NCBI GenBank assembly: GCA_026770705.1
Contig: JANJGN010000034.1
Coordinates: 4,588,001 to 4,652,000 of the forward strand
DNA: 64,000 nucleotides
From: Isurus oxyrinchus
Taxonomy: Eukaryota
Reading direction: 5' to 3'
Positions 9,101 through 39,100 of the stretch are shown here, one piece after another. How positions within the stretch are numbered: position 1 is the stretch's first letter; every line of letters starts with the position of its first letter. The translations under genes were made by a program, and so were the position numbers. The notes under the pieces were generated by a model. It did no database searches. It saw nothing but the letters and a program-made list of their open reading frames with translations, and was not told the DNA's origin.

Positions 9101-12100
9101 CGGAAAAAAAAAACCCTTGGGTGGCATCGTTCCCAATAAAACATTCACTCAATGCACCACTGATGCATCGCATGTACCATCTCGAAGATGTACAGCTGCA
9201 ACTCACCAACACTCCCTAGACCGCAACGTCCAAATCCATGACTTCTAAAGTCCAGAAGTTCAAGAGCACAAGGCACATGGGAGCAACAGAATGGGGAATT
9301 CGCCCTCCAGGCTCCTCACCATCCTGACTTGGAAATGTATCGTCTCCCCTTCACTGCTGCTAGGCCGAGATCCCGGAACTTCCTCCTTAATAGGACTCTG
9401 AGTGTATATAGGTGACATGGACAGCAACAGTTCAAGAAGGTAGCTCAGCACCACGTTCTCAATTGTAATTAGGAATGGCCTTTAAATGTTGGCTAAGCCT
9501 AAGATTCCCACATACCATGAGTGAATGAATAAATGGAGGCCCATCCCGTAAAGCCAGATTAGGGTACAAAACACTTCCATCGACATTAATGAAGCACAGA
9601 TTATGGTCTTGGGACATTTTAATAGCTGATAATTTCACTTAGAACGTGGAAGACCTGTACGTAGTCCCCTTTATCCGTTATGTTGATGTGACTATTACAA
9701 AACCCTGAAATAAAAATGGCATTCTCATCTTTGAAGGGTTGCAATAACCACGAAAATCCACAGCGCATGTGGAAGAGTGTTCCTTTGTCCCCCTGAACCG
9801 ACTCTCAAAATGTTTTTTTTTAATGGTGAAATTCTTCCATTATTTTTGTAACTTTGTATGTTAGTGTCCTTTCTTCTGCTTAAACTAACAGTGGAAATGG
9901 AATATGCCTATCTGACCTTCCGAACAATTGAATTGCATCACTCTTTAATGCATTCTGCTCAAATTATTTCAGGCCCCGTTTTGCACACATTATTCATAAT
10001 GTAATTCTTAAACCCTCGTTATAAGCGTGTTGAATCCAAAACACGCTAATTCAAATCGCACAATATCCTTAATCAACGCCATGCCCGGAAGTGAAAATAG
10101 AACAGCATGTATAATCAAATTTGCAATTCATCTAATTCATCGAACCTCAAAATTCCCTCTACCGTCTACTATGTTTACTGCATAGTCTAAATGATTCCAA
10201 TGCATTTTAACAGAGGAGAAAATAAAAACAAAAGAGAATGGTAACTGGTTCTTAAATTAAGATTTCAGATCAGCATTAGAGTTCATATTGTTCATTTATT
10301 TTTTTGTTGTTTTTGCTGCTTTACTGGGGAAAAATCTATTGGGGATACCAGTGGGAGGGAATTGGAGAAGTGAATCAGAAATCTGATAGTCTTGCTTTGT
10401 ATGTTTGCTGGGCTAACATCTGATCGAGCTTCCCGGCTTTATGGCTCAACTTCTCGAATGTTTGCATTATAAAGATAATCATATTCCATTGCATTAGGGA
10501 ATGTGTGATTCCTTCCTACGTAAGCATTTTGAAACAGTTGATGCTGAATGTCTGCCACAGCAATCTGTTTTACGAATTCGAGAGGTGCAGGTGGTGTTAA
10601 TAAAAGAAGGCTGTTTGTCCCGATTTTCTATTGGGCTTTACTACCTCAATTATTCTAAATTATAACTGATCATCCGTTCAACTGGCACTGGATTGCACGA
10701 ATCAGCATCAGAAATAAGAAAATTCGATCTAACTAATCGATGTACACATTTTCTGTGGTTGCTCGAATTTCTTTGAAAACATTAAGTGACATATTCTGAA
10801 CAGCAATTTTAGGAATCCCTTAAAGGAAATTGGCAGCGTGTCAAGACCCTGAAAACTCTCCGGCTGTTACAGATTTATTTATGCAAAAATGACCACTCTC
10901 TGCTCCTCCAACTCGGCCCAACTGTGCATCACTGAAATGCACAGGTTAAGAGCTCCTGGCGTACCTTCAGAGCTCGAGCACATGTTTACTGAAATACCTT
11001 CTCTAAGCAACTGCGCTTGGCATTTTTCATCATTATTATTTTGTGTCACACCTTAACATTTATGCCTTTTGCGAATAATGTCTTTACAAGGCCCCAAATT
11101 ATGTGTTATAAGCACTTGACAACTTTGCTGCTTAGATGTGATTCTGTAAATTAGTTATCACTTTGGAATAAAATTGAATTACGTTTGTGAAAAACGCTAT
11201 TTGAATACAAGCTAGTCTTGTTTTTTTATGAATGTGCTCATAGGTTAGTTTCTCTGATTCCAGAGCTCTCCACGTGCAAAGAAGCTTTGAAGGATTGTGG
11301 TGAGAAATTATACGTATACAGAGGCATTGCCAAGGTCTGAATGATGGATTGCAATGAAGTTCCAGTGGGATAACTAATCATAATCTAATCACCCTGCGGT
11401 GTGAATTTCCTGAAACAAATTGAATCAACACTTTCACTTAATTATTAATTTACCATATTAACATCACTCGCTGGACCATTGTTCAAAACTTGGATGAATG
11501 TCTATTGGGAAGAGGCAGCAATTGGGAATCATACATTTTGTACTTGTGCATCGAGATTTGCAACATTATGTCGGTGAAAGCCTCTTTAAAGCTCAAAAAT
11601 TAAGTTTTGAATTTTACCAATCTTTCAATATTGGAAAGAAAGTCGTGAATTTCAGCTCGCAATTCTGGCATGTTCCCAAGTAGCCTAAGAGATTTGAAGT
11701 AAAAAAAAAAAGTAGGGCTGTGTTTGCCTGTAGGCTCCGTCCTGCAAGCTGCTCTAGTATGCAACACATTACTATCCACCTCACTGTATCAGAAATTAAT
11801 TATAGCCAAAGAATGAGCAATTTTCCAGCGGCACGGAAACCTAAGTTCAAATTTTCACTTAGATCGTGGATGAAATGAAATCAGTTCCACCAATCAAAAA
11901 TGTTGATTTCACGTGCTGAGATTACCCTTACAAAAAAAATGCACTTTGGAAATGTTGCATTGAATCTGATTCTAAGCGGTGCATGTGGGTTAGAGTTTCA
12001 TTTTCACGTGACTCTTGTGAACATGTTTTGCTCGAACGATTCTCGACACTTCGCCTATCATTTTATCTCTGAATGTGTTTTTCTTCGATTCCCACTTCCA

Positions 12101-15100
12101 TTAACATGCTTTATACCTATCAAACCGAGTGATTGTTTCATTCCACTTGAACTCTTAAAATGCATTCCCAATTAGTATGGTACACTCAAGTTAAGTCAAG
12201 CCCTTTCATCATTTCATGATGCAATTAATAAAATTTCACTTTATTTGTGGTGAATTTGTGTTGCGCCCTTAGAAGCTGCAATCAGTGTCATGCCTAACAC
12301 TGAAACCAGGATTCCAAATGTACACCAACCTGAGATTTATCTCAGTATAGAAACTGGTCCAAACCAAATTTTAACTATACCCCTTGTGAGCTTCATATGC
12401 TGTATGTGTTATGTAATTTAACTGTTTCTTTTTTACCCATGCAATTTAACAGAAGAAAAACTGAAATCAAAAGAAAACGGTAATTGATTGTGACAATGAT
12501 ATTTGATAACGGAATGATGACAAGTTGTTCTTCTCTTTCTGTTGCACCAAGCAGATGGCGTGGAAATGATTGTTTCTGATATGCGTGGAGAAGAGTTGAT
12601 GCAGTGATTGACGATCTGGCCAAACCTAATTAAGATGGTGGAATATGACATTTGCATGGGCATTATTGGCTTTAGGCTGCATCTCATTGGCGTTGGCTTG
12701 CCTGTTAGAATGGTGTTCCAGTATAGTATTGACTACTGAGGGCACACTTTGCCGTAGTTGTTGCATTATAGCTGTCACGCCAATTTGTGTTCCGATTTGG
12801 AAGGGAATTATCCAACGACCTCCAATCTTTAAGAGCAGGGAACATACCCTGATCTTCATTACAATATTAATACCTGAATTGCCCTAACCTATGACAAGAT
12901 ACCTGCTTACTTTGTATTCAATTGCAAAAATACACATCACGGAAAGGGAGCGTGTGACCTATCCAGCCTACGTCAAGTTTTGATTAGCCCCACTAGTACA
13001 TATCAAAGTATCATAACACATTATGATCAAAAATACCATTTATCCTTGAAAGAAATAGCTAACCCGAATGGTTCGAAAATTGTTCATGATTTGAAAATTC
13101 ATGCATCCTCTTGGTTTCCATTTGTTTTGGAATCTAGAAAAGGGCACGACGTTTTATTCACACTGGCGCTCATCCAATTCTGCCCAATTTCACCTTTTTT
13201 TCGCTTTTTGCCAAATTCAGCTGCTTGATTCAGGGTTGCAGAAGTAACTTTCTGGAACAACTTAGCTTCATTTCTTTTCTTTAATAACATCCATTTCTTA
13301 GGTTTTGTCACAGCTTTACATCTCCGTCTTTCATGAAGCTTTTGGCCACAAATAACTTAATCTGTTGTGTCCTTCCTTGTCATGTTTTTCATGCAAACTT
13401 GCAGCATATGATTGACTGCACTTTTCGAAATCGTATGTTTGACATTTTTTACTCACAGAGCTCCACATAAACGAGTGCTGATCCAGTTTCAGATGAACGT
13501 TCTGATAGGATAATTTTCCTGATTCCAGAGGCGACCAAATGCAAAGAGGATTTCAAAGCTTTAGGTGAGAAAAGCCACTTTCCTTCTGGAAACTCTCACA
13601 TGATAACCTGACCTGTACATCACCTGAGACAGAATCGCAGATCTAGTGATATCATGGTGACATCCCATTATAAACACAACCATCAAATAGCCTCATTGAG
13701 ATCAATTGGATCTCAAAGGAGTGTAGGAAATGAGGCAAATAACATAGCATCCAATTATCAATTTTGCCAAGGAGCTAGCTCTGCGCCCTATGGTTGAATG
13801 CAGTGATATTTTATTGAGGTTAGCAATCACTAAATTTGGGCTATTATCCACGCGCTACAGAGATTGTCAGCATTTACATCAGCATTACATAATGACATTT
13901 CTGGCGATAAACTTCGCTGCTGAATCTCAAGGGCTTCTTTTGTTTAACAGAAAAAGAGCTTAAAGAAAATAAAGTATTACCACGTTTCGAAAATTCACCT
14001 TTACGAAACTCATTAGGAGAGTTTTGGCAAGAAGATTGAAGAAACGGTTTCAATTCAAACATGACAGTCTTTCAAATTGCTGGTGTGTCTTTACTTTACT
14101 GCATTAAACAAAAAAAAAATAAAACATGCCACAAGATAAACGTAAACTGAAAAGTTGTGGCATTGATCTGATGATTATTATTTTGATGGTGATTAGATTG
14201 ATGATATAACTAACGATTCTGAATTGAAGTGATATATGAAGAAGAAACGAATGCCACTTTAAATACATACTTTAAATTAGAGAATATAAATGCCTTTAAT
14301 TGTTCATATCCATCTTATGTCTGTATATCATTCTTCTGCTAAAAGGCAAAGCTGACATGAGGATTCGCAGGCACACAAAGTGGGCTCTAATGCATCTAGC
14401 CAAATATCTTTTCATTTGCCATGAGTGATTAGGGAACAAAGGAAAATACTTGATTACTTACACATAATCTGAGTTCATAATCAATCATTGTTCAACGTTC
14501 AATTTGAATAGCTAATTGCTAAGACCGCAATGGCATATTAAACAGTTGTCTTTTGACTTCAAAACAGACCCCAATGCAGCATTACCAGTCCAATATGCCT
14601 GATGTGTAGACAGAAGCATATTGGTTAATTTGTAATCTCCTCACTGTCGATACCAAATGCGTTACTTCCCATTTTAATCCATATCTAGACAATGTTATAA
14701 AAACCGCAGGTACCGTTGAGTAGCACCACCGAACGATGTTGGGCTGGGATTTTTTTCTTTTTCATGCAACTACACTCAGGAAGTCAAGACTAACACCAGC
14801 TTGTAAGTTAATCATAACTTAGTGTGAACAAAATTCCTGATGCCAATTATAGGTAGTGTTTTTCTAGAAACTCTGGAAGACGAATTCGTGTTGTTTTTCT
14901 AAGGGCAAGTTCACTTTTAACTCGGCCTCGAATGAATTATCGCCATGAGCGGAATGAAAAGGACATGAGTGGGCATGAGAATTTTGGAGGATCATTCGGA
15001 ACCATGTGAAAGTAAAATATTGTCATTATCAAACTGAGAATTGGAAAAGCACTCTAACAACTCATCCGTGAAGGAGCTCCACATGTTCGTCACCAACATT

Positions 15101-18100
15101 GGCAACTTTGTGGGTATATTTCTGATTGCAAATAGACAGATGGTGCTTCAGAGAAAAGTATTTGGCATGAACATATCCGGGTTTGTTATGCATTCCCCAT
15201 GTTAATTTGACATGGTATGCATATCAATTTAGAAATCGGTTCATGGAAATCTTAATCACAAAGACAATGGATTAAATTCCATGGCACAATTGCGAATAGA
15301 AAAGGAACATTTCTAGCGTTATGGAAAAATATGCTTTTCACTCAACCAACCTTAGCTTGCAAATACAATGGACGTCTGTTTTATTTTCTGTTATTGTTCC
15401 GTGGTCATTTTAAGCTTCGCCAATGAATGATTATGACATAATGTCTAATCAACCTGTCATGAATTTCATTTGTCTGCAACTCCTGAACAGAGGGCAAAAT
15501 GACTTTGTTAACTTACCTTAATTCAAGCTTTTATTGTACTAATTATTCACAGTGAAATCAATGAAGCCTCTTTTTAATTGCATTGAAGATTCATTGCGTT
15601 ACTTCCAAAGCCACTCGATCGTTTGTCAGTTGCGGTGCCTAGAACTGAAGGCAGCAATTAACGTGTAATCAACTGTAAGCTTTATCTTAGATATTGATTT
15701 GATTCGCAAAAACTTATTGAACCTCAAATCACTGTTAAAGTTGTGTACTATTTACGTTTTATTCTAATTCATAATGTTCCTGAACAGAAAAAGACATCAA
15801 ATCGAAAGAAAATGGTAATTATCGTTAAATAATCGTCTTACAATTTAATTCTGGACATATTGTTCAAGCTTTATTTTCCAATATGATGGTCGGCCAATGA
15901 CTGTTTGGGAGTTTTGGTGAACTGGAGCTGCAGAAGTGATTGGCGTTTTTGTCATTCTGGAACCAGACAGGACTGGGCTTGCAACTAAATGAGATTTTTG
16001 TCGTTTATCGCTGACCTGTACTGGCCTAGGCTTGTTTGTTTGAAGGATATGACGGGTCAGTGCTGCATAAGTGATTCGTTTATTTTGACGCAGTTGATGC
16101 GGAATGGCTGATACGATGCTTTGTAATCTGATTTGGAGGGTCATTCCCAAACACCTCGGCGAGTAAGTGCATGGGGGCGCCTCCAAGTACACTTCTCAGC
16201 AATATTTGCTCCATTTTCAGAATCTATAAACTTAGGTCTGCCTAGCTTTCTTTCAATTAGAAGAATCATGAGAGAAATAGACCATTCGATCCAACATGTA
16301 AATTTGCATGTTTGCTTTGTCCATTAGCCATTGGGAATTATATGAGGCACATTATAAAAAAAAAACATTGTTAATCTTTGAAATGCAGGACAAAGGTCAA
16401 TTGGTTGTAAGTGTTCACGGTTTGAAACCCACTAATTCTCTCGATCTCCTCATACCTTGGAACATAAACAAACAGACTATTTCCCTGAGATCTTTGCGTT
16501 CCTCCAATTGCGACCACTTGTTTCTCTGTGATTGCCACCAATTAGCAGCAGGCTGCGTTCCTGCAGGTGCTCTGAAAATGTTCAATGAAATTCCTCTCCT
16601 AAACAGCTCTGCTTCACTGTTTATCATTTTTACATTACAACACTCTATTTCAGCCATGGCATTGCCGAATATTTTGGCTACATACCACATTACCTAATTT
16701 GTGCTTCATTGAGCACTCATAGCGCACAATTTGCTGTGCAAGATTACCTGTGCTTTCCCAAATCTTTTGAATGGCCTCATTGTGAAAGCGACCTTAAGAA
16801 CGAGAGTTAACGTTGTTGCAACTTAATGTTCTCATAAGTTTCCTTTCAACCTTCCAGAGCTCAGTGATTGTAAAGAATCTTTGAAAGTGTTAGGTGAGAA
16901 AACGGACACATTTCATGAAAGCCTCTCAGGAAGAGAAGCAACAATTTCATCTGAGACAGAAATGTACCGCTGCTGATATTATTTGTTGCGGCCTGTTTTT
17001 ACCCAAGACGATTCAATACTGTTGATTGTAACATTAAGCGTGGTGTACAACAGGGGGCCCATACAATGCCGCATATTTTGCACTTTTTGCAGATTGGTAT
17101 CTAGAGGGAACATGACGGGATGTATTGACTATTTTTGGTGTTATCGATCAGCACAACTTTGGCCTATACTCCATGTGGTACACAAATAATCATCAATTAA
17201 AACCTTTTTTTTTTACAATTAAAACCTTGGCGCTGAAACTTTGCTGATGCCCCTCAAAGTCAATGATTTATGCTCTACAGAAAAGAAGCTGAAAGCAAAG
17301 CAAAACGGTTAAGTTTTGAAAATTACTAATTATAAAGATATTGATGCCAGTGTTTACAACAAATTAAGAGTAGAGCGTGCAATTCAATCTGTTGCATCAT
17401 TCGATTCAATACGCATTTTAAGTATAACATTTTAATATTGAGACACAGTAACTGATTACAAATAGGTAAATTCGATGGTAGTGACATTTAACTGACAAGG
17501 AGGATCATCAATGTGATATTTGCCATGAAGTGAAAGACGAATATTTTAAAAGAGTATTGTTTGTCTTACCTAAACTTACAATGTTGAAAAGATATTGCAA
17601 ATAGCAAAGATAAACAGTGATCTTGGATAATTACTTTATGTCCAACAAGTTCCTGAAAGACGAAGTGTGATATTCGCCTTCAGAGGAAAGAAGATAGATT
17701 ATCTGCCATGTTATGCTTTTATATAGTAGCATGCATACAGTATACTGTGTGCTGACATACAATGGAAAACGATTTGACTTCTGACGAGTAGAAGGAATTT
17801 TAGCACATCTCCAATTCAGCATGAGTGTACAAACAAAAATAATGATCTCAGTAATGCAAGGGGAAAAGCAAATTATTCGTATTCTTTGGAAAACTTAACG
17901 TTAAAATATGCATGTATGTAGGCATTTTAATCGATATTCCACGTCGGATGGCTGATGCATCAGGCCTGGTGTGTAGAAAGAGGCATATTGGTGAGTTAAG
18001 AATGTTTTGATTCTGTATGTCTGAAGTAAGCTGCCCTTCTTCCTCCCAGAGCTGGACGATGTCAAAAAAGCCAACGATGGCTCAGGTGAGCACAAAGAAA

Positions 18101-21100
18101 GACTGGGTTGGGAATTGTTCTGGGCAAACAAATCAAAATTGACGACTGCACTTTTTAACTGCAGCTGATAATTTGTTAAAACAAATGAGTTGGAAGACTG
18201 ACATAAAAACAAAAAAAATTGATAAAGCTCAGCATGTTTGGAAACATTGTGGAGAGAGAAACGGAAATCCTGGCGAGTTAGAAGTCATTCGTTTTATTGA
18301 AATATCTGAGGAAAACAATTGTTGTAGTTCTTCTGAAATTCGGTGAGAAGTTAACATATCATATAGATCCCTACTGACTCAACAGAGAACATAACTGAGC
18401 GGACTTGATTGGGCATGTTAAAAATGCTAATTCAGTATTGGGGACAATTATCTGTTCAAAAACATATTGAGGTTAACGGAACTGAGCAATGTAAAATGTT
18501 TGTAAGCACTGACTGATGAACAACTCTTGCTTTTCAACGATCCGCGGTATATATCTGTGGATAGAATCAGTGAACGTGCTGCAGAAGCAACTATCTGTTT
18601 TCAAAAAATAATTTTCAGATGCCGAGTTCACAGGAAAACTTGACACGTTACGAAAATCAATAAGAAATCTGCCCAAACCTCTCTAATGAATGAACGAATC
18701 TTTTGGCACCATTTTGCCGTCGAGCAAGGGTGGTATCTGTTGTGAGGGTATTTAATGTATTTCTCTTATTCAAACTCCGTAGAAAGAATAAATGTTTTCG
18801 CCTTCTGTGCTCAAATCATGAACTTTCTTCCCAGCATTGAATCGTTTGCAAATTGGCCAAATTATTGGCCTGTAAAAACCTTTTTGGACCTCATTGTGTC
18901 CAGGCAGAGTGAATAGAAATGCGGTTTGCTTGGTTCCATCATACTGCCTCTTCCTGACTTAAATCGATACATTTAGAAAGAAAATCAAAACAACTTGTTG
19001 CGAATGAATCCCAGGTTGTGATTGTTTTTCGAAGGGAAGCGACAAAGTGTTTTATTTTTCGTAATGCACACGTCAGATAATGCAAAAAATCTCTAAATAT
19101 ACCGAGCTATGAGTGGTTTGACATCAACTCAATTTTCAACATCATACTCACTAAAGAAACATAGATTGAATCCACCATTCAGTCTTTGTAAGTAGCAAAG
19201 GAAAGGCGTCATCGCATATTGTTCCTGTGCTTGTCAGCAGGTAGAATGTACACTGCCATGTATGTGCTTATGTTTCAGCATGTTGGAGATTATTTCTGTG
19301 CCCGCTTGCTTTGCCATGATTTGTTTCAAATCTAAATCATGGCTAGAGATTGCAGATATAAATATGCTGCAAAGCATAATAAAACACCCCATTCTTTGAC
19401 TCAAACATTACGTTTGTGCTATTACTAATAAAGCACGACTTAGGAACTTACGAATATCAGGCGATTTAGCTCCCCAAAATTTGAATAAGTCCGTGGGAAA
19501 CATATACTCAGCCCCAGAAACACTCGTTGCTTACTTCGCTAATAAATAACAGAGAATGCCTACATCAGTTTGCCATTGTTACATTGTCCCTGAACATCAG
19601 CAGTTTTTTTTCTCAATTATTGGAGTGCGTCACTTTGCTGACATCACTCCTCGATGCACTTTGCATATCTGACTTGATTGCAAATGCACGTTTTCATTTC
19701 GTCCAATGTTGGAAACTGTTTATGTCTATCTAAACTAGCAAATATTTAAATCCACTTGGACACTTGAATTTGATCACCAGTTAACCTTAGTCGAGTCAAT
19801 CAGGGCCTCTTCTTGGAAGCATCAAAAAAGTAATTATCAAAGCATTGCGATAATTTTGGAGAATCTGCAATCTGTCCTTCTCAAGGCCATATATTGATAT
19901 TAAGTTTGGTTCCCGAAAGAGAAACCAGGAATCCGAATGTAATTAAATGAAAAATTTATCTAATTGAGGTGAACAAATACTCATCGAATTTCAATTCACT
20001 GGGCAAGTTTCACAATGTTTCACGTAAACCCTACATGTTCCTAATGCACGTTTACAGATGAAAAATATAAAACAAAAGATGAGGGTAATTTAATATTAGG
20101 TTATGATGTTATAGTTTTGCAAAGCTGTAGAAATCACTTTGCCCTTTTACTTTACTCTAAGAGTTTATTTCATATTAGTCTGTTGAAGATAAAAGTGATA
20201 ATGAAGGGGAAATGTGTTCAGGATTTTGCAAGTCTTAATTTAGATGTAGATGGATTGACATTTATGCGAGGTTCTTGTCTTAAGGCTCAACAGCACTAAC
20301 GTTTGTTTGACAGTTACGACAATATTCCAGTATGTTCCTGAATGTGTGACTCATTCTTGCGGCATGTGCTGACACAGATGATGCTGAATTGTGACCTCAT
20401 CCAGTTGTGTTTATAACTTGGAGATAATTACCACTAACCCTGGTGAATGGCATTGTTGGGATTGTTGGTACGGTGAGGTGTGTGACAGGCCTGTCGGCAT
20501 TCGCTTTTCAGCTTCATTAAGACAATTATCATGATCGATAACCAGGCTGTCTGTTTGGCGGACGATATAATGCAGCAATTTGCATTGGCTAAATTTAGCA
20601 TTCAATCATAAATCTTCTATATCGAATACAAAAGCAGAAAATGCTTAACAAAAGCTCAGCAGATCAGGCAGCACTTGTGGCTAGAGACCCAGCGCAAACA
20701 TTTCGACTCCGTATGACTCTTCTCCACATACGCTGTCATACATGCATAGTTGTTCCAACATTTTTTGTTTTTGCTTCAGACTTAGAGCATCCGCAGTATT
20801 TAGCTTTGGTTCAATTACAATAATGCTTATCATGCTCTCTTCCATTGAACAATTGTGACTGATTTGGATGATCAGCAACAATCATAATGAATGGCGCATC
20901 AGGCTCGAAGTGTCGAATGGCCTACTCCTGCTTTTAGTTTCTATGCTGCTATGTAATATAATTTGACACATTTGTTACGGTAATGCCAGCTCGATGACAA
21001 ATGTGCATGGTCTACGATCTGGCAAATAATTTAGCACGAATTTATGCCACTTAATAAGACCCCTGGTTATCTTCAGATATTAAGGATGTGGTAGCTGGAA

Positions 21101-27100: not shown

Positions 27101-30100
27101 GCACAGGAAATAGTTGAGGTGTTTTGTTTCAGCAAATGCAGAATACAAAGCGTGCAAAGAATCTTGAAATGATATCAGAAAGAGAAGGACTACAGTCTAT
27201 TCAAACCTTTGAAGAATTTACTTTCTAAATTCATTTGAACTGTAACAGCGTTTCAATTTTCATAAGCAACAAAACAAAGGTGAAATTCCATTCAGTTGGA
27301 ATAGTTGGCTGCAGATATGGAGATGGCGAAGATATATTTTCTGGACATTGAGTGGCATTGAGTGGAATTGTTTTAATTGTATGGCTTTTCATTCGTTGTG
27401 TGTGAAGATCGCTGGCTAGGCCAAAAATGGTGGCTCATCCCAAAAATGCCAAGAGAGTAGAAATGCTGCAATGTAGGCAAGAAGCGCATCCTGTTACTCC
27501 TGTTTAGAATACAACACATATCGAGTCAAACTAATGGAAAACAACTTAGGAACACTTGGAGGACAGTCACTTGGACCCATTCCAAATTCTACTTATTTAT
27601 TAAATGAGCAGACTCCGTTTCAACAAACTACATTGCTTAATTCAATATTTAGTGCAGGTCTTGACAAGTAGCATTCTGTCCGACCCCCAATTCTGATGTC
27701 GGCGTCTTTTCCAATATCCCAAATCGTGGTTTTGCTGGCTTCACTCCTTGAACCTTGATGTAAAATTTTATGATGGCTTATTTTGTTTGATGGTTTCGTT
27801 TTGCACTTCCAAAATTCATGCATGCCTTGGCCCTACTACCAACTATGTGCAGTTGCTTTCTTAGTGACCTTCCCTCCTGAAGTTTGGAAGTTCCCTCATC
27901 GTTGCGCAAGGATCAGCACCATTCCCGACTCCTCAGTTACAGAAGCGAAACATTTCCAATTGCAAGAAAATCTGACAAAACCCAAGCTTATGCTGACAAG
28001 TGGATTATGCATTTGCAGGAAGCAATGCAAGGCAATGATGAATTCCAAGATGAGATAACTGAAATATAGCCACTTGGAATTAAAATGCATTCCCGTCACG
28101 GGATCCCAACTATCAACATCCTGGTGACTGACTTTCACAGAAACTAAACTGGACTAGCTATTTGTATACTGTGGCTACACGAGCAGTGCAGAGGCTAGTA
28201 ACCCACTTCCTTACCCCCAAGAGCCTGCTTAACATCTAAAGGATGCAAACAGGAAATGTGAAACTTTCCACTTGCCTTGGTCAGTGTAACTCAACAGCAC
28301 CGAAAAAAGCTTGAAGCCTTCTAGGGCAAAGCAGCTCGCTTGATTAGAAGCGTATCCAAAAAAACATCCAATCCCTTCACATTCGAACCAAAGTGACAGC
28401 CTTAGGTGCTATCTACAAGATGCAACACAGAGACTCACCAATTCCTATGCATAACCTACCAAATCCACGATCACTAATGCCTGGAAGGCAATGAGAACAC
28501 TATGCAAGTCCCCCGCCCCCCACCCCCAAACCACACACTAAGCTGACTTAGAAATATAGCGCTATTCGTTCACATTCGTTGGGTCATAATTCTGGAACTC
28601 CCCTCCTAATAGCGCTTGTTGGTATACTGGGAGTTTGCCGTGCAACAAAAGGTCTTTTTTCCACCATCTTCTCAAATGCAATTTATATGAAGGCCATTCC
28701 AGCGACGCCCACGCCCCATCTTAGAATAGGAAAAACCAAAAAGTCGAATATTTTAATTGGCTTTATAATTCAGCGCACTTCAACTCTTTGTACTCAAGAG
28801 AATTGAAGAAAATTATTGAAATCATTATCCGTAATCCAAATCTCAACTCTCGCTATAATTCTGGTGAAACAGTTCTGCATCACTTCAACTCCTACTTTAT
28901 GGAGGTCCAAGAGCGGAATCCTGCAATCTGAACATGATCAAACCTGAGATAAAAGCAACATATTTCGGATGCTGGAAATCCGAAGCAAATGCAAAAACAA
29001 AAACATATATTCAAGCCTGAGATTTGTTTAACTCCATAACTGGCTTGCGCAAAAGCTGAGAAAATCTTCATACGTTTTCCCAGTTGTACAATGTTTCCGG
29101 TCTATTCCAAAAGATTTTCATGCACTTCAACAGAAGGACAAATGGAATCAAAAGATGCTGGTAAGTGACTGTTAAGTTATTATTTCGCAAAGTCAAATAA
29201 AGTTAGAGTGGCATTTATTTTCAAGAGGATTTTGCAGAAACATTGTTCAGAAGATTGGTGAAAGGTAGTTGAATAAGTCATTGGCAATTTTTTCAGTATT
29301 GCTCAGATATTTTGTGGTTACATCTGAGCAACGTTTACTGTTTAGACACTTAACGGCACTGACGTAGGGTTTTAATTTCCGGTAATAGCCCAGTTCAACA
29401 GTGGATGCGAAATGCCTTCCCACATGCGTAGTTGATAGTAACTGAGAGCAACGATAAATTTGAACATGAATTGGGAGAATAATTTTGAAGGGCCTCGACG
29501 AATTTGAGCAGGTAACGTCTTCCCACCCTGTTCTTGATGTTAATGCCATTATATGCGTTCCGCATAACCCACGCTTTGGCTATTTTAAATTGGAGGACAT
29601 GAACGTGCATTGGATCAAAATCGTTTTTGTTTCAGTTTTCTTTTGTCTTCTGGACAATTTGTTGAGGCACATAATTAGCAGCAATTTCAGGAATCACTGA
29701 AATCTGAAACAAAATCGGCATTTACAAAATGTTTCAGGTATAAATCCCCATTCATGCTCTCAGTCTCGTCGTTTTTGTAACTTGCGAAAATGCGATAATT
29801 CTTCGAGATATTTGCAGTTCCCCAAGTTTTGTATCTCCGATTGCCATCATCTAAAAGCTGCAAGGCGTTACCTTGAGCTGTTGGTCCTACAAACTGCTCT
29901 GCATCGCTATTCATCCTTCATATGATAAGGCACTCTTCAACAGCTCCGCCTATGAAAATATTCGCCATATGTACCTTTGTTTGTTATGTCCATGCATTTC
30001 ATTAATACTCCCGCCCAATTTTCAATGTACATTTCAAAACCCGTTGCATGACCGAATTTCATTAACACCTCAATATAAATGCAAAATAATCTTTCTGGAG

Positions 30101-33100
30101 AAGAATGAGCTCCTGTTGTTTTGGGTCTTTTTGCCTCGTTCCAGAGCTGAAATCATGCAAAGAATCTTTGAAAGATTTAGGTGAGAAAACAAAATTGTGA
30201 AACTCTCGCCTGTTGATGGGGCAATGAATTGATCTGGGGGACAAATGTTTTTGCCGGACCGTTTTCTCCAAGACGCATTCCCTGCACCATTTACTTCTGC
30301 AGTTTAGACGTCAAGTGTGGTGTTTAACAACAGGGAGTATAAAATGCCAGCCGTTCTGTACTTTCATCAGAGAGATGTTTGTGGGGCCATTTGACGGAAT
30401 GTCGCAAAGTATTATTGAAATTACTAATCAACACTTATATTCTAGCTAGTACAGGCAGCAATTGCAATTATTATCTATAATGGCATTGCTGCTGATAAAC
30501 TGAGCTGTTGACACTCAAATGCAATAATTTCAATTTTCAGAAGAAAAGCTGAAATCAACGCAAACGGGTATTAAACGTTCTGACACAACTACGATTTTGC
30601 AAAACAAAATGTTTTAATTAGGATGGAACAAGAGACCTTCAGCCAAATTCATATATTTAATTGCATTATGTTTACACAATATTGCAAGGGTAACGTAAAT
30701 CTGAGTGTCGTGGAATGTTACTGGTGCTGTGTATGATAATAGCAATAGATGTGACGATGTTAATGCTGATTATTCATTTTTAAAAACATCTGTCTTTTTG
30801 CCAGGTTCGATTGCATGATACTGACCAGATTTCTATAATTAGAGAGTCAATTACCTTTAGGTGTTCTTAACTATTTAATACCCGAGGGATTCACATAGTT
30901 CTTGAAAAAGTTGGTGCGACATTGGTCCTCGGAGGCAACAACAGTGGATTGCATTGTCTGTTATGGTTGCATACCGTTGACCCAATTGGCCTTTCCCTTG
31001 CCATAAGTGCAAAACAAGAATCATGCAAAATGTTAGAGCACTTCCCAGGTGAGGGAACTTGAGGTCAATAAATATTTATGATATATATGAAGTGATCTGT
31101 TCTTCTTCCTTTACAGACCTGGATGGTGTCAGAAAAGTCGCTCATGACTCAGGTTAGCACACGCGTGGTGGGTTCGGAAGGCAGCTTCATCAATTGGATT
31201 AAGTGAGAAGAATAGTTTTGCACACAGATTTAAACTAATGTTAACCCGCTGAAACAGAATGTCGAGTTTCGTTTTCCTCAAGATTCTGCCACAATAATAC
31301 GATGCCATTATCCAGAAGAATAAATAGAAGGTTAGCATTAAATTCATATTTGTATTTATTGAAAGTGAGGACTGAATTGAAAGGGGCAATGGCGGGTTTG
31401 TAAATATTCAGATTGCCGTTTTTCAACTGTTAATTTGCAATCCAAATGTTAACATTAGTGAACTGAGAAATGTCAGACGTCAGAAACTGTTAGTTTTTCA
31501 AGGTTAAACTGGTTTTCGTCCCGATCGGTGGCACAATTCAGCCTTAGATATGTAATAGAACATAGAATTAATGTGCTGGAGCAGCTCCGATCTTGCAGAA
31601 GTAAGTCACGATCAGAGGTACTGTTCACAAGTTAAATTGTGCATTAGAAATATAAATACCAAATCTAAATATAGGAGTCCAAACTTTCAGATGATACAAC
31701 TAATCTACTGGCATGATTTTTTGAAAGCATGTGAACTGTTTCTGGCTTCGGGAAGGGACATTTTTTTTTTTTACTAAACCTACCTCAGCATAAACGTGGT
31801 AGGCAATTATATAACGAAGTGCAATTTTCAGCTCCCAGTGAGCAAATTTAGATGTTTTTTCTCTAAAATTGAATAAGTTCCAGTTATAACTGGTAGGCTG
31901 AAAAACATTTTTGGAAAGCACTTGTCCAGAAGGACTAAATGTTTTGGAAGTTTGCATTAGATTCTAATACCAGCTGTCCCCGATAAAAGAAAGGCGAAAC
32001 GTTTCTGACAAATGTGGAAACACTGAAACTGAGAGTGTGATTTTCTCTTCGATGGAAACAGATTTTGTTTTACATTATTTCCATTAATGCAGAACTCAAT
32101 TCATAAAACAATCTTAAAAAGATATGATGAACCGAGTGATCCGAGTGATTCATAACTCAAAGCAAAGTTATTCACTAAATAAGTGTAGAATGAAGTTCCG
32201 TTTAGACATACGTGCGCATCCAAGAACAGGGAATGGCATGTTTGCGTGTGTGGTGTGTGTGCGGATAAATAATCGGCTGTCATTTAAAAGTTTAGCATTC
32301 ACTGCTTTGAAGTGGATTTTTGCATACCCATCGGGGACAAAGATTCGAAAGTCGTTTATCCTTAATTGCCCAAGATAACAGTACTGGGAATGTCCTGAAT
32401 TGAAGCGCAAGAAGGCCCACATTGTGACGTCCCATTAGAATACAGCAAATTCCTCCCAAATCGCTGGAGCAGAAATGAGGAACTTGCGAAAACAAGGGAA
32501 ATTGTCCTCTTCAAATTTAGTGAAAATCGTTGCAGGCTTTTAATCTATGCACCTTGGTATGGTAATCGATGAATAACGACCTCAATTTTGGAAAGTTGCA
32601 GTGAGCAGGAGCATCCACATTCCATGTCGTTCTTTGTTCCATTTCCTCCATGCAACTCGGGCTTGGACTTTTTAATGACATCTCACTTCTAATCTTTACG
32701 TCTAATTTCACGATGTTGCCTTTTATTACTCTCTTCAGTATTGACCAATAGTCGGAAAGGTTAACCAATATCTCTTAAGTTGAATACTTAACTCCACTTA
32801 GGCGCTTGAATTGGGTTACCATTAAGGTATAAAACATTGAATTCAAGTGTCTTCTTCGGAAGAAGAAAGCTTCATAATGCAAATCGCAGATCCTGGCTAT
32901 AATCATCATCAATCCGCAGGAACTACTTCCAAGCACATTAATTATTGCGATGCCCAGAGGTGAAACTAGGAATCTAGATTAATCAGGCCTGTGCTTTATC
33001 TAACTTTCGTGCTTATAAAGGCGAAGATTCTGAATAACCTCGTGAAGTTAGTCAATGATTATTGTAATCTAATTTTGTCCAATTTATTTTAACAGATCAA

Positions 33101-36100
33101 AAAATAAAATCAGAGGAGAATGGTAATTCATTTTGAAATCATATTTAAAATGTGCTTAGGCATTCGTAATTTTCCTCTTCCTGCCCTCGGCCCACAAGAG
33201 GCAGATGCAGAAGGCGATGTTGGGAATATACCTCGACGGGAATTAGATAACCGGTTCAGGATTGAACAGCCTTCATTTCGATGCTTCAGCGTTGCCAGCT
33301 GTACTCTGTACAGCTGAACTACACTAACTTCTCCGTGACAGTTACATTATGATGGCCGATATTGTAGCCCGTGAGTTATTCTATGCGTGGTTCGCTCCTT
33401 CTGTCACATTTTGCCGTAGTTGTTGCTGAATTTCTGCAACTTCAAATTGTGATACAAACAGGGAGGGGTGGTCAATGACCGGGGCATAAATGAAAATGGC
33501 ATGACTGAATTTATTTTTCGGCATTATCACCTGATAACCCTTAACCATCTATCTGGTCAGTGTAAATTAAATTGCAAGCGTTTTCTTCAAGTAGGCGGAG
33601 GATTCGATCCATTGTGTCAATGCCAAAGATTTGTTAGGCCTCCCTTGCTCTCTTGACAATACAGTGTGTTATATTATGCAAAACCTTTTTTAGTACTTTC
33701 TGAAAGAGGAGAAAAGGGGGCACACACTAAAACTAAGCTGAATTTACAACACAGTCCATCCCATCATCCTTTCCTTTAATCGGAGCTCGCTCCAACATTA
33801 TAATTGCGCAAGACATTTTCGCTCCTCCAGTTTTAGTCAAATTGTGCACCATCGATTGCCTCCACTTAAAATCTTTCGGGATGACCGTCTAGTGCTTCTG
33901 AGCTCGTCACTGGGATTTCCTCCTATGAAAACAAATCTCTTCTGCTCTACTGTCCATTCTTGTGTCAAGACATTCCTTAACACATACGCCTTTGATAGAC
34001 CTCGGCTACAAGTCCAGTTACGGGCTTTGAGCCTCATCTTCAAATTTCTTCTGCACACATTTCATTGCAAAATCAACAATTTAAAGCATTTCATATTGTT
34101 TTAGTACGTGGAAGGCGTGATATCAAAGCAAGGAAAACTCGTTCTAAATTAATCTGCTGATACTTAGCGATTTTCCCCACTGCAGAGTTCATCCAATGCA
34201 AAGAATCTTTGAAAGTTTTAGGTGAGGTTATCGATTTGTATTCTGGAAACGATTGCACAATTGCATGGCAAGGATATCATATTTGAGAGAAACGTAGGGG
34301 AAGTGAAGTTGTGTTTACATCCCGTTTTAACAAATAACCATTTTTGGCTCAATTGACTCGTCGGTCGTTAAAAATAAACCGGAGCGCAGAACAGATGGTC
34401 AATACAATACCACAAGATCAGCAAATACCCCCGGCAAGTATTGCCAGCGCCACATGTCAGGTTGTAATGAACTTTCATTCCAGTTTACAATGCACAGCAC
34501 CGTTATCCTATCATCCATATGGCACAGAATTAGTCAGCTATTACGACTGCTTTGAAAAGAAAAAACAATATTGGCAATGAATTAAGCTGTTGAATCTCAA
34601 AGTCAACAACTTCTGCATTGCAGATCAAGAGCTGAAAGCGAAGCACAAAGGTACTTTTTTTTTCAGATCGACTAAACAAATGCATTATGACAGGCATTAG
34701 CAAAAAAAAAAAAAGATTATGTAAGCCAGCAGTCTTGCCGTTCAATTTGCTTACATACTTTGTACAGCATTGCATTTAAACCGAGACACAAATCAAGCCA
34801 CCACAGGAATGTAGACAAAGCAGTTTCGACATTGGCAAATGCAGGAATAAACGGTGATGGCACTACAAATATATAGATGTGGAATGTTATTAAGGTTGAC
34901 CTTTTTTATTATATATAATTATGCATTCTCAGAACAAAAAATTCAAAGTAGAGTGAAATGCATTTCCCTTTTTTATTTAGCAGCTTCCTGTCTGAGAAAT
35001 GACCGCTGTTCTATCAGTTAAAGGCATATGTTGACAATCCTCTTCGGAGTCAACCAACATGTGATGCCGTGGGATGCCTTTTTTTTTATTACAGTCGACT
35101 CAACATTTCTTTCTTTTGCCATTAGAGGGAAACATGCAACATGTGGGAGTATTGTATTATTCATTAGGCAAATAATCACCATCTGAATTAATATGCAACA
35201 TTGGATTTGCAGAAGGGAAGCGTCACAAGACAATACGAAGCGCTTGCTCTTGTGAATTTTTTTCAGTTTAAATGAAGTTTGAGATATTGTTGCAGGTGTT
35301 GAATTAAATGGCATCCATCGTCACGTAACCAATGATTTGGGCAGAAGTGCAGGAATTTCGTGACTTGAAATCTTTTGATTGTGGGTGTCTGAAGGGGACT
35401 GTTCTTCTTTCAAGAACTGGATAAGGTCAATAAAGGCACCGAAGACTCAGGACAGCACGCAAATAATGCTGCTGCCTTGGCATCATTTATTGAGGGAATG
35501 ATATAAATTGTGTACTGCACTTCTGATCCCAGAAAATAAAGTAAGGTGGGATTAACTCAGCGAAATAGAGAGCCTGGCCGGGTTCATAAATGAGCAATTT
35601 CCATCAAACCCTTCAGAATAAATCAAACATTTATTCTTATGTTTTGTTGCAAGCGGACATTTAGTCATATTTCATGTGAATTTAAATTGAGGACATCATT
35701 TGAAAGGGCTTGCTTGGCCTTGGCATCAGGTAAGGATGGCTTTGTGAGCTTATTATGTAAGGATCGATTTCCGATATTGTTATGTGCGAGGCACATATTG
35801 ACGTTATTGCTCTGAGAGTTTGGAGTGTTCTACAAACGTCCATCGATGAAGAACTCCCAGTTCTCATCTCTTCTAATGGAAAACATACACGTTTGTGTTT
35901 TCACCTGATAGAAAATAACATGAAGGAGGTACAGCAGCATCCATATGGGAAACAAGCCTGGGCTGTGGACAGATTCCACCCAGAGAATTAGCACGTGGCG
36001 AATAGGGATACTAATTTCTGTTCATGTAAAACTAATCTCTCAAATGAAGTAACACAAGTCAGAACTATATTTCAACTAGCATCACGGGAGCCACTCTGGA

Positions 36101-39100
36101 ATTTGGAGATAATGAATTAAATTTTACTTAAGCAAACTCAGTAGAGGTAATAACTGCGCTGGGCAAGTTGGAAATTAAAGTGCTATGTCTGCTGATGTTT
36201 AATCCTAAATTTGTTAAATTAACTGAGCGCCCATTTTGATCAGAGGATAAAATAATAGCTTATTTTGCGCCTTATATTAGTCAATGAACTTGGCCATTAA
36301 TTTATAGTTGAGCAACTTAAACTAAATTTGAAATGAAAATATATTAGCAAAGCACTTACTCTGATTTATTCAATTGTATCATCACTTGTTGATATATTTC
36401 ACTCTCTTCAGCTATATTACATTCTACTTTTTCATTGCTGTGTTGCTGTGTCAGATTCTTCTGACGCACTATTTAGGATCTTCCACTGCCGGAATTTCCC
36501 GTTTTTTAAAAAATTGTATTTAATTCTCTTCTCTGCTGCTGCTTTTTCTTTGTTGCAATTATTGCGTTTGGCATTGTCAATTGTTCAATCGCTATTATGA
36601 AATTCTCTGTTATTTCCAATACAGCTGCTGCGGGTAGTTACTGCACAGTTTTTAACATCTCTTCTCCAATGTTCTTTGGTGCACTTCCACATCAATGAAT
36701 AATATGATTGAATATTACTACCTTCTGGACAGGAGCAAATCATAATTGAGGAGTCAGCGTAAAGCTATGGAAAATGTAATGCATGCCTGTTGATTATGAT
36801 AACCTGAAATTGCGTCCTTGCATTCCAGAGTTAGGTGACTGCCTGGAAGCTTTAAAAAAAATAGGTGCGTCGTCTTTTTCATACCTATGCAGTTCCCATT
36901 AAGAGAAATTCGACTCAAAGTAAAAAGAGGCATTTGAAACTCCCGGATAGAAACTTCAATGCTGATTGCTATGAAGCGCTAAATTCTTAACTGGGTTGAT
37001 TTGCAATATTCATGTTGATATGTGTGTCGGCGTGGAGGATTTGATTTAAATAATATATATTTGTTCAATCGAAGTGGCGGCCACTGACGATCGTTGCCAA
37101 TCCGTAACTGCTCGTGAGAATGTCTTATGGAGCTGCTTTCTTGAACCGCTGGAGCACATGTGATGAAGGTGCACCTTAGGGATGGATTCGAGGATTTCAA
37201 TCAAGCAACAATTTCCACGTGCAAACGTCTATCAAGCATTAACCACTATTTTCTTTCGTACACACTATTATCCTTTTCCAATGCCGTGAGTATAAGAACA
37301 GTGGGGTAAACAAGTAGTTTTCAACAGAAGCCAGAAAATGGGTGAATCCGGATAAGAAGTCCGTAATAGGCTCAGCCATATATTACGCTCCTTAATTTCA
37401 ATATAACTGAATGGAAATCTACGTGCATTCAGGCTACTTCCGATTTATTGTAAAGATGTGTTTCAGGGACCTCACCAGTTCATAGAATCATATCATAGAT
37501 ACAACCGAATTTCCCTGCACCTCCTGAATTAAAGCTAAAATCTATGTCCAATCGTACTTACACCACCAGCTAATTTGAACAGTTTTTGCTACTCTTCCTT
37601 ACGGAAACATACCATACACATTCACGTTCACATTTAATCTCCTCTCAGTCACATTTGCTTCAAGGAGAACAACCAAAATTTGTCCAAAGTAACTTTATAG
37701 ATCAAACATTCCGTGCCATTTCCGACCGTTTCCGTCGTGAAACATCTGTGCTACATCCACTCAAGCACTCTCATACCCTTCTTCAATGTTGGTAAGCGGA
37801 ACTGGAGGCAACATTATATTTGGCACCTAACTAGAACTGTCCTAAATTTCAACATAGAATTCATGCTTTTGTTTTCAATGCCTCCATTAGCAATTCCAAT
37901 TACGTTTGTGAACCACTCGTTTACCATATCCTATCACCTACAAAACTCAATCCACATGCACCCGTGTACTTCTATGTCTACACACGCTTTAGAATTGTTC
38001 TATGATACAGATGCATTTTTCTCCACCCATTGCACCCAAGTGCTTCAACTCACAGTACATTATATTGAATTTTGTCTGCTGCGTGCTTGCCCAATCCGCC
38101 CATCCATTCCATGCTATTGCGACATCCAAACCCTGTATAATGGAGTAAAGAAAAATCAGTGGTATTGGAAGTAACCCTTGGGGAATTCAATATCTAACAT
38201 CCAGCAGCCTGGGGGTATTGGGGGGATGGGGGTGGGGTGTGGTGCTGCAGGGGGTAATGCATATTTGCTCCTTTCTGCACAGGAGAAAATTTGCATCCAA
38301 CAATTCTTATATCGCTCTCCCATGATCCTAAATGCTGTTTGTCAACCTGGTTAGGATTACCTTTTGACAGTATAAGTTATTTTAATACATACGGGGAGTT
38401 TCATCTCATCGCTTTTATCAACATCTCTGCTGCTTCTTCACAACTGTGATTAAATTATTCAAACATGATCACAATATATAAGCTCGCCAAGGAGATCAAC
38501 GTTTGATATACCGAGTGGTTCGCACGTCTGGGATTAATGCCCTCTGTTATTTTGCATTTTCTCTCAGGTCTAATATAAGCAAAAAAACTAGTTTATAAAT
38601 AATATGTAAAACAACACAGCACAGTAATGGCGCCACTTGCAGTTCTGTCAGGAGGCAGCCTAGCAGCCAATTCTGGCATCTTAAATTCTAGACAATCTAA
38701 AATGTATTGTTTTATTTTTTTTCCCTAACAGAAGAAAAGCTAAAATTAAAAAGTACAGGTAGATGCAATAATGTTCATTTTGTAGAAGGAACAGCCGTTC
38801 ATTATGTGACCATTGTCCCTGTGTAACATGTGTTTGACAGGGTCATAACGTCATAGAGATATGTTTCACGGAAAGAGGCCCATCAGCCCATCCTGCCCGC
38901 GCCGGAGATCAAGTCACAGTCTACATTCATCCCATTTTCCAGCACTTGGCTCATACCCGTGAATGCTATGGAATGTCAAGTGTTCCTCTAAGATTTTAAT
39001 TCATGTGGTGGGTGTCCGCCTCTACCACCTTTTCAGGCAGTGATTTCCAGGTGTGCCCTTTCCTCTGCGTGGAAAAAATAATAATTTTCACCCCTCTAAG

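Follow-up and report, generated by a model that had tools for sequence, protein, structure and literature searches.

The window analysed here, 64,000 nt of Isurus oxyrinchus DNA (GCA_026770705.1, contig JANJGN010000034.1, positions 4,588,001 to 4,652,000, forward strand), holds an array of very small exons in the middle of a ~810-kb cartilaginous-fish gene composed of phase-1 microexons, ~200 of which (1,955 aa) were detected. Most of this gene is built from exons of 27 and 36 nt. Negative coordinates denote positions upstream of the window, exons are named by slot letter and position, and exon use is inferred from splice dinucleotides alone. Conceptual splicing of 48 intact exons (-17229 to 55732) yields 504 aa with zero stops, in which hydrophobicity peaks at a period of 3.50 (power 54) and 90% of heptad a positions are hydrophobic. 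One 36-nt and one 27-nt exon together encode 21 residues, i.e., three heptads. The gene product is predicted to be a long rod of coiled coil with a B30.2 domain at its end: the terminal exon matches Pfam SPRY (E 3.4e-14) and forms an intact phase-1 B30.2 open reading frame (ORF; L042:4507-5027, window +228.5k). A CD23/CD209-type lectin stalk was considered and dropped, since the gene ends in B30.2 and showed no lectin motif.

A head-to-head paralogue marks the limit of the gene's 5' region. A candidate leader exon at -627213 is one among 13 candidates, a regular-expression search for a transmembrane exon returned only hydrophobic runs of simple repeats, and the first coding exon was not confidently placed. 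Between window -650k and -550k, none of 145 plus-strand ORFs (68 aa or longer) matched any Pfam family, IgV/IgC included, and no convincing Ig motif turned up across 1.56 Mb, a search that a divergent Ig exon could escape. RING and B-box domains were absent from the 145 ORFs of the same interval, a RING pattern found no match in 1.16 Mb, and a Pfam scan of 125 ORFs, taken from window -200k to -150k and from +64k to +214k, gave no family. Reads of four same-species RNA runs on 16500-36000 covered mostly repeats, with no exon-exon joint among the matches listed, a result that weighs neither for nor against exon use.

The ancestral unit of the array comprises five slots, A36-B27-C36-E36-D27. An earlier note on this DNA had named exons B, C and D of the unit; the fifth, 36-nt slot E had been overlooked, decayed copies of which stand in the window at 19070, 27142 and 32093. 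The annotated features are as follows.

11264..11299, +, exon A, 36 nt, phase 1, intact
11395..11547, -, inverted piece left from the intron that precedes slot E, case 1 scar (nhmmer E 6e-9)
12453..12479, +, exon D, 27 nt, intact
13529..13564, +, exon A, 36 nt, intact
13951..13973, +, dead B, case 2: 23 nt, no G at donor -1, AG kept at the acceptor
14683..14718, +, dead C, case 2: CAT acceptor, donor lost (AG at donor position)
14689..14709, +, candidate cryptic in-frame 21-nt exon within dead C, weak sites
15788..15814, +, exon D, 27 nt, intact
16858..16893, +, exon A, 36 nt, intact
17281..17307, +, exon B, 27 nt, intact
18050..18085, +, exon C, 36 nt, intact
19070..19106, +, dead E: 37 nt, CAC acceptor, CT donor
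20058..20084, +, exon D, 27 nt, intact
21338..21373, +, exon A, 36 nt, AAG acceptor, -1/+1 frameshift compensated across three codons, of doubtful status
21761..21787, +, dead B, case 3: CT donor
22414..22448, +, dead C, case 3: CAT acceptor, 35 nt
23677..23703, +, exon D, 27 nt, intact
24582..24617, +, exon A, 36 nt, intact
25223..25249, +, exon B, 27 nt, intact
25961..25996, +, exon C, 36 nt, intact
27142..27177, +, dead E: GA donor, in-frame stop
29134..29160, +, exon D, 27 nt, intact
30145..30180, +, exon A, 36 nt, intact
30541..30567, +, exon B, 27 nt, intact
31117..31152, +, exon C, 36 nt, intact
32093..32127, +, dead E: 35 nt, donor lost
33096..33122, +, exon D, 27 nt, intact
34186..34221, +, exon A, 36 nt, intact
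34624..34650, +, exon B, 27 nt, intact
35415..35450, +, dead C, case 4: GA donor, AAG acceptor
35451..36160, +, C-E intron homology ending ~270 nt short of E; last unit truncated, no E or D
36829..36864, +, divergent 36-nt exon, first past the amplified array
37475..52371, +, tandem duplication, 99.2% (exons 38732 and 44644 copied to 46175 and 52089)

An old burst copied the five-slot unit, and the copies then lost exons independently; a tree of 23 units is near-star-like: its terminal branches are long and no two units pair closely. Exons A and B are the closest neighbours, with a median intron of 387 nt between them and 1032 and 723 nt outside. No unit retains both C and E (0/16, upstream clade counted once; Fisher P 0.036), although few independent events stand behind this test, since E loss is partly inherited, several dead E copies having lesions in common (a CT donor in 4/12 outside the upstream clade). 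The 7.45-kb tandem duplication copied one 27-nt and one 36-nt exon, a gain of 63 nt. Beyond the A-E array, an incomplete scan found many 27-27 and 36-36 neighbours within the gene.

Both AG and GT splice sites are retained in 67 of the 84 A-D slots, whereas 24-32% would be expected from flanking divergence (P < 1e-18). Together with the intact terminal B30.2 ORF, this bears out the view that the gene is under selection. From four paired exon losses the earlier note had argued that the gene is functional; two of these involve a single deletion, and the argument is better based on splice-site retention.

All four lesions are present where they had been placed. In the unit at 11264 (case 1), neither a remnant of B or C nor an AG..GT candidate in frame was found within 11300-12452. 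The reported absence of both exons is real, but E is gone too, in one rearrangement that left an inverted intron piece (11395-11547), with E-D intron homology resuming at 11844. Case 4 combines a dead C with a unit that breaks off within the C-E intron, at the array edge. No D remnant precedes 36829, in agreement with the earlier reading, but 35451-36828 contains two weak in-frame candidates, at 35730 (27 nt) and 36625 (54 nt), which resemble none of the exon classes and have donor scores at the bottom of the real-exon range. Since cases 1 and 4 involve single deletions, only cases 2 and 3 represent two separate point lesions. In case 2, the candidate cryptic exon 14689-14709 (AG..GT) would add exactly one heptad; among 95 intact exons its sites rank at the 4th and 13th percentile, and a rescue of this kind is met by chance at 3% of random positions. 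In case 3, the neighbouring A21338 has, beside its AAG acceptor, a compensated frameshift that removes the Cys. A common origin of cases 2 and 3, both with a CAT acceptor at C, was rejected, as the units U13529 and U21338 are not sisters in the tree and the B lesions differ. Assembly indel error is unlikely as a general cause, as the 7.45-kb copies differ by 56 substitutions and only 6 gap bases; single 1-nt events, such as those at A21338, C22414 or B-52571, may be assembly errors.

According to the earlier note, exons are lost only in 36+27 pairs and the survivors alternate perfectly. Alternation does hold among the window survivors, where none of 28 junctions breaks it and shuffles give 3.9-4.7 breaks (P 0.005-0.013; 0.013 with deletions held fixed). 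Counting A21338 as dead would turn case 3 into a triple loss and raise the window P to 0.03, a value from a baseline that counted B-48522 as intact. In the same array just upstream, however, the pattern fails: 6 of 38 junctions in 14 units are broken and six of eight loss runs are odd, which contradicts loss only in pairs. The lone losses there affect four 27-nt and two 36-nt exons, and the upstream breaks alone are not significantly rare (9.6-10 expected; P 0.09-0.11). Over all 23 units, 6/66 junctions are broken, whereas shuffles that preserve exon class give 14-15 (P 0.001, or 0.003 if deletions are held fixed). Dead slots are grouped as well, into 12 runs versus 18.1 expected (P 0.0006), and into 8 versus 12.0 in the 14 upstream units outside the stretch that the note covered (P 0.013). 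Paired loss is a tendency to which the nearby units offer at least six exceptions, and no strict rule. Units upstream of -90k were excluded from permutations because of a recent 26.7-kb duplication and an apparently inherited C lesion; B-48522 was counted dead, as its last base forms a stop with the next intact exon, and a C-like match at -77382 (score -6) was left out of the catalogue. The idea that lone losses are younger was abandoned when its P of 0.007 changed to 0.06 and 0.14 upon reclassification of B-88376 and B-48522.

As a control within the same gene, we used 21-nt exons, one heptad each, which form a block of 74 slots (33 intact) between -517k and -396k. Intron divergence is similar in the control block (0.51) and the array (0.52-0.54). 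Dead slots amount to 41/74 in the block versus 26/92 in the 36/27 array (P 5e-4) and fall into 20 runs where 18.7 are expected, i.e., they show no neighbour clustering. Same-type junctions, in a block whose slot order is itself not strictly alternating, number 16/32 versus 6/66 in the array (P 1e-5); omission of three recent duplicate units leaves 13/29 (P 1.5e-4).

On balance, the array in the middle of this ~810-kb coiled-coil/B30.2 gene loses its 36- and 27-nt exons in neighbour groups more often than by chance, probably through weak selection against heptad breaks. An account without such selection, which we consider rather unlikely, would combine deletions spanning two exons, a truncated array end and regional decay of unspliced blocks, with the window as a clean stretch by chance. 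Single structural events in cases 1, 4 and the upstream -33486 unit fit this account, as do upstream runs of 7 and 4 dead slots and the finding that unit-order shuffles contain a break-free 9-unit stretch somewhere in 9% of trials. Given clustering, even-length runs are also not in significant excess (6/12; P 0.21-0.32), so run lengths do not separate parity selection from neighbour-linked decay. It leaves unexplained, however, why the deficit of breaks persists with deletions fixed, both overall and in the window, and why an equally old 21-nt block is unclustered at about twice the death rate.

The earlier note had offered heptad register and coupled splicing side by side; the 21-nt contrast favours a register constraint, and coupled splicing is disfavoured as the main cause. 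Under the latter, which seems improbable to us, microexon neighbours would be defined as a block, so that one lesion drops both and the partner decays neutrally. Exon blocks are known in human cells from the available part of PMC12758388, the clustering of dead exons is real, and C-51806, adjoining dead B-52571, has a weak AAG acceptor. In the blocks described in that text, which depend on the EJC, flanking introns are longer and spliced after internal ones. This geometry predicts A+B blocks around the 387-nt intron, yet the five two-slot losses comprise four B+C, one C+D and no A+B. Case 3, moreover, has its inner sites (B donor, C acceptor) broken and the outer ones intact, similarly spaced 21-nt exons show no coupling, and in three other cartilaginous fishes the RefSeq isoform gene models of family members differ from one another by single segments of 9 residues. 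A strict rule at the mRNA level, with upstream lone losses paired by skipping or repaired via spare E exons, GC donors or cryptic sites, strikes us as very improbable. At -21816 and -80464, E is alive just where C has died; the peptide of E-72768 is well kept although its donor is GC, and counting it live brings the upstream P to 0.027 (B-48522 again taken as intact). A-112843 has strong 45/42-nt cryptic acceptors, and the donor of A-19497, adjoining dead B-17984, is weakened. Against such a rule, A-53009 and C-17229, which lie beside dead 27-nt exons, are among the best conserved (profile scores 87 and 93), and no in-frame rescue was found within 150 nt for B-17984, D-53927, B-88376 or C-73683.

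Under register selection, lone loss of a 27-nt exon would shift the repeat by +5 and that of a 36-nt exon by +2 (modulo 7), straining the coiled coil, so that lone losses would be tolerated occasionally yet under-represented. Pairing could arise by one deletion spanning two live exons, by a second splice-site loss in the neighbouring exon, or by the keeping of only C or only E, the two 36-nt slots that adjoin each other. Exons of 21 nt, one heptad each, would carry no register cost and would die freely and independently. As described in the accessible portion of PMC4786415, +1/+5 discontinuities need delocalisation over two heptads, and +2/+6 give the greatest strain. The lone losses are mostly of the 27-nt kind (4 vs 2), which is the milder +5 class.

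Selection that keeps exons in frame, as multiples of 3 nt, is well known. We tentatively suggest that, in this gene family, register may constrain exon death like a second reading frame, counted modulo 21 nt, with split-heptad exons lost only in register-neutral combinations. The same modulo-21 reading, equally speculative, would have spare E recruited when C dies and 21-nt exons turn over freely. Our literature search found no paper on an exon-loss bias toward a structural period (multiples of 21 nt) with a same-gene control. If true, one megabase-scale gene would represent a natural experiment on protein geometry steering splice-site evolution. The loss bias itself makes the cost of coiled-coil discontinuities testable from genomes alone, using five related B30.2 loci on the contig and orthologues. 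B30.2 exons of four related loci lie at 2.71, 3.47, 6.40 and 7.50 Mb of the contig. The bias is also indirect evidence that this very large and poorly annotated gene of cartilaginous fishes yields a protein in which the geometry of the rod is important.

Among known systems, the EJC-dependent exon blocks of PMC12758388, in which adjoining exons are skipped together, loosely resemble the paired losses; as far as the available text goes, they are a splicing-factor effect in human cells with longer flanking introns, and the shark pairs are not the predicted blocks. The stutter, stammer and beta-layer rules of PMC4786415 assign a cost to +5 (lone 27 nt) and +2 (lone 36 nt) and zero to 21 or 63 nt. 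They derive from engineered and bacterial trimers and, in the part available, are not applied to exon loss.

The closest B30.2 relatives include automatic models from cartilaginous fishes: TRIM69-like in skate (P0153), TRIM39-like in catshark (P0011/P0162), TRIM58 in chimaera (P0155) and A33-like in electric ray (P0159). Such TRIM- or A33-named models show up to 55% identity and a coiled-coil-like stretch before SPRY. In five that were tested, SPRY was the sole Pfam family and RING and B-box were undetected; the names derive from the B30.2 match. With 200-460 aa, the related models fall far below the implied rod and none spans the A-E array; searches, two of them limited to proteins up to 2000 aa, found no long annotated relative covering it.

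Butyrophilins (BTN/BTNL) resemble the shark gene in having heptad exons and, after them, a terminal B30.2/SPRY exon in phase 1. BTNs, in the accessible sections of PMC5938342, combine few heptads with Ig domains and a transmembrane segment, whereas the shark gene has ~200 microexons and no Ig or transmembrane segment detected. The chicken BG genes of the butyrophilin family, as presented in the available parts of PMC5938342 and PMC4046983, likewise encode a cytoplasmic coiled-coil tail in many tiny exons, including 21-nt heptad exons (32 candidates in the shark gene), and change exon number by duplication and loss. BG has Ig-V and transmembrane exons and, unlike BTN, no terminal B30.2; the shark gene differs from BG in its B30.2 end, its ~810-kb span and the absence of a detected Ig or transmembrane exon. 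BG exons are, in these same excerpts, 21 nt long, with a few of 18 or 24, so that register is kept exon by exon and pairing is unnecessary, whereas the shark gene uses split modules of 36 + 27 nt.

Position-weight scans trained on the window's own exons resolve four phase-1 microexon classes on the forward strand, A and C of 36 nt and B and D of 27 nt, one exon of each length together making three heptads. The lesions that the earlier note had described in the units at 11264, 13529, 21338 and 34186 are present as stated. Its intact exons also alternate perfectly: no junction of 28 is broken, a break being two same-length exons that adjoin once dead slots drop out, whereas class-preserving shuffles give 4.7 (P 0.005), or 3.9 when physical deletions are held in place (P 0.013). 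Both P values are post hoc, the pattern being the reason for choosing this window. P becomes 0.03 if A21338 is counted dead; the acceptor of this exon reads AAG, its reading frame shifts and is then restored by compensation, and it lacks a cysteine that is invariant in 17/17 other A exons aligned (A21338 and A36829 left out). Of the two intervals in which the earlier note had seen no further exon, 11300-12452 contains no in-frame AG..GT candidate, and 35451-36828 contains two weak ones, at 35730 and 36625, without similarity to the exon classes. The dead C at 14683 encloses a weak, in-frame cryptic exon of 21 nt, the length of one heptad.

Profile HMMs add a fifth, A-like slot of 36 nt, E, between C and D, which the earlier note did not include; many further decayed copies lie upstream of the window. 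C and E are never both intact (0/16, P 0.036, with an upstream clade counted once and E lesions partly inherited).

19070, 27142, 32093: decayed E copies (profile HMMs)
11395-11547: 150 nt of the intron preceding E, inverted, in the unit at 11264 (E 6e-9)

The loss at 11264 is a single rearrangement: A-B intron homology stops just past A, and E-D intron homology picks up again at 11844. At 34186, the dead C sits in a unit truncated ~270 nt short of E, at the array edge, and the next exon, 36829, is divergent. Only the losses at 13529 and 21338 thus consist of two separate point lesions each. Elsewhere, E-21816 (negative coordinates count upstream of the window) has a stronger upstream acceptor near -21825 that would yield a 45-nt exon. 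Within the same gene lies a 26.7-kb tandem duplication (-167.8k to -114k, 83-86% identity); in this clade the 36-nt slot that stays live is E, and C is dead.

The amplified array occupies roughly -160k to +35k. The tree of 23 units between -88786 and 34186 is near-star: its terminal branches measure ~0.4-0.6 substitutions/site and no two units pair closely, so that A-D lesions are largely independent. In the 14 upstream units, six of 38 junctions are broken (null 9.6-10, P 0.09-0.11). Four are 36-36 junctions created by lone 27-nt losses, B-17984, B-52571, D-53927 and B-88376 (in the last unit C is dead too and E intact); two are 27-27 junctions, at C-73683, whose unit has an E with a GC donor, and at a seven-slot dead run after D-50097. 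Within 150 nt, four of the six showed no in-frame rescue, and B-52571 has weak GC-donor options only; at the DNA level, the claim that exons are lost only in pairs thus does not hold. Across all 23 units, breaks number 6/66 vs 14-15 expected (P 0.001-0.003), and dead slots fall into 12 consecutive runs vs 18.1 expected (P 0.0006), or 8 vs 12.0 in the upstream units alone (P 0.013). Even-length runs (6/12) show no significant excess once clustering is allowed for (P 0.21-0.32), and 9% of shuffles of the unit order produce a nine-unit stretch free of breaks.

The same gene contains an internal control, a block between -517k and -396k in which two types of 21-nt exon alternate, though not strictly, and a lone loss carries no register cost. 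Intron divergence is alike (0.51 vs 0.52-0.54 in the 36/27 array); 41/74 slots are dead vs 26/92 (P 5e-4) and same-type junctions number 16/32 (null 12.3) vs 6/66 (P 1e-5). Dead runs number 20, 13 of them odd, vs 18.7 expected; without three recent duplicate units, same-type junctions are 13/29 (P 1.5e-4) and clustering is still absent. Neighbour-linked loss is thus specific to exons that are not heptad multiples in length. This contrast sets a single block against a single block, and no other argument for register selection is as strong.

We favour, with moderate confidence, soft selection acting on local heptad phase in the 36/27 array. Losing 9 residues would shift phase by +5 and losing 12 by +2, modulo 7; in the available text of PMC4786415, +1/+5 discontinuities must spread over at least two heptads and +2/+6 cause the greatest coiled-coil strain. 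The exceptions that were tolerated fall more often in the milder +5 class (4 vs 2, numbers too small for a test). B+C is the usual lost pair because A (3/23 dead; invariant Cys) and D (4/23) are seldom lost. Chance combined with deletions and regional decay, a possible though unlikely account, would cover the losses at 11264 and 34186 and the absent parity excess, but it leaves the 21-nt control unexplained. Coupled splicing of neighbouring microexons, which the earlier note had offered as an alternative, now appears improbable: exon blocks do exist, yet their geometry, in the part of PMC12758388 available, predicts loss of A+B (387-nt intron), seen in 0/5 two-slot losses; the broken splice sites at 21338 are the inner ones; and in each of chimaera, electric ray and catshark, isoforms differ by one 9-residue segment alone, in gene models and outside the 36/27 array. 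That a strict pairing rule is hidden at the mRNA level we consider very improbable. Overall, the lesions are real, the pairing rule is overstated, and a probable soft structural constraint comes with a useful built-in control.

The window (C34:4588001-4652000, genome size 4.98 Gb) lies inside the gene; within the 1.56 Mb around it, microexons extend in both directions. Between the bounds below lie 198 candidates of 21, 27 or 36 nt (1,955 aa), against one on the minus strand.

-582463: 111-nt phase-1 exon, 5' bound of the candidate count
+228.5k, forward strand: terminal B30.2 (PRY-SPRY) exon, intact phase-1 SPRY ORF (E 3.4e-14)
C34 2.71M(-), 3.47M(-), 4.82M(+), 6.40M(+), 7.50M(+): related B30.2 exons, five in all, 0.8-1.6 Mb apart

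The four additional B30.2 exons are 40-59% identical. A second gene, whose first exons are paralogous, begins at +271k; microexons on the minus strand between about -613k and -745k reveal a paralogue in head-to-head orientation, and contig C21 (82-118 Mb) carries a cluster of ~140 further B30.2 exons at 25-40% identity. Selection on the gene is indicated by AG and GT both retained in 67/84 A-D slots vs 24-32% expected (P < 1e-18), and by divergence of intact exons from consensus (0.20/0.15/0.26 by codon position) below that of aligned flank segments (0.33-0.35). Conceptual splicing of the 48 intact exons between -17229 and 55732 yields a stop-free product of 504 aa whose hydrophobic period is 3.50. 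Past the array, exons of 27, 27, 27 and 36 nt (55732, 59886, 61392, 62160) imply 18-residue (27+27) modules in other gene parts. A 7.45-kb tandem duplication (37475-52371; 99.2% identity, with 56 substitutions and 6 gap bases, and no difference over the last 2239 nt), which may be recent or an uncollapsed haplotype, duplicates one exon of 27 nt and one of 36 nt, a gain that is neutral for register. The C-D intron at ~6000-6950 holds a 174-aa ORF at 6422, with similar ORFs across the region, and an inverted repeat (6047-6160 / 6551-6675), a fragment we take to be retroelement-like.

In the databases, the nearest relatives are 200-460-aa models from skate, catshark, chimaera and electric ray, with TRIM-derived names and SPRY as sole Pfam family. 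One, the TRIM69-like skate model P0153, opens on a hydrophobic segment resembling a signal peptide, and near -627213, upstream of the 111-nt exon, there is a phase-1 candidate for a leader-like exon; taken together with the Cys that is invariant in A exons, these hint at a secreted, disulfide-linked rod. In literature listings that cover few subscription papers, we found neither an account of this gene family nor a description of register-biased exon loss. Across 145 ORFs in the gene's 5' region, neither Ig nor RING nor B-box turned up; the gene differs from butyrophilins in Ig and from TRIM genes in RING, and from chicken BG in its B30.2 exon. Its workings resemble those of the heptad tails in chicken BG and in butyrophilins, as PMC5938342 and PMC4046983 describe them.
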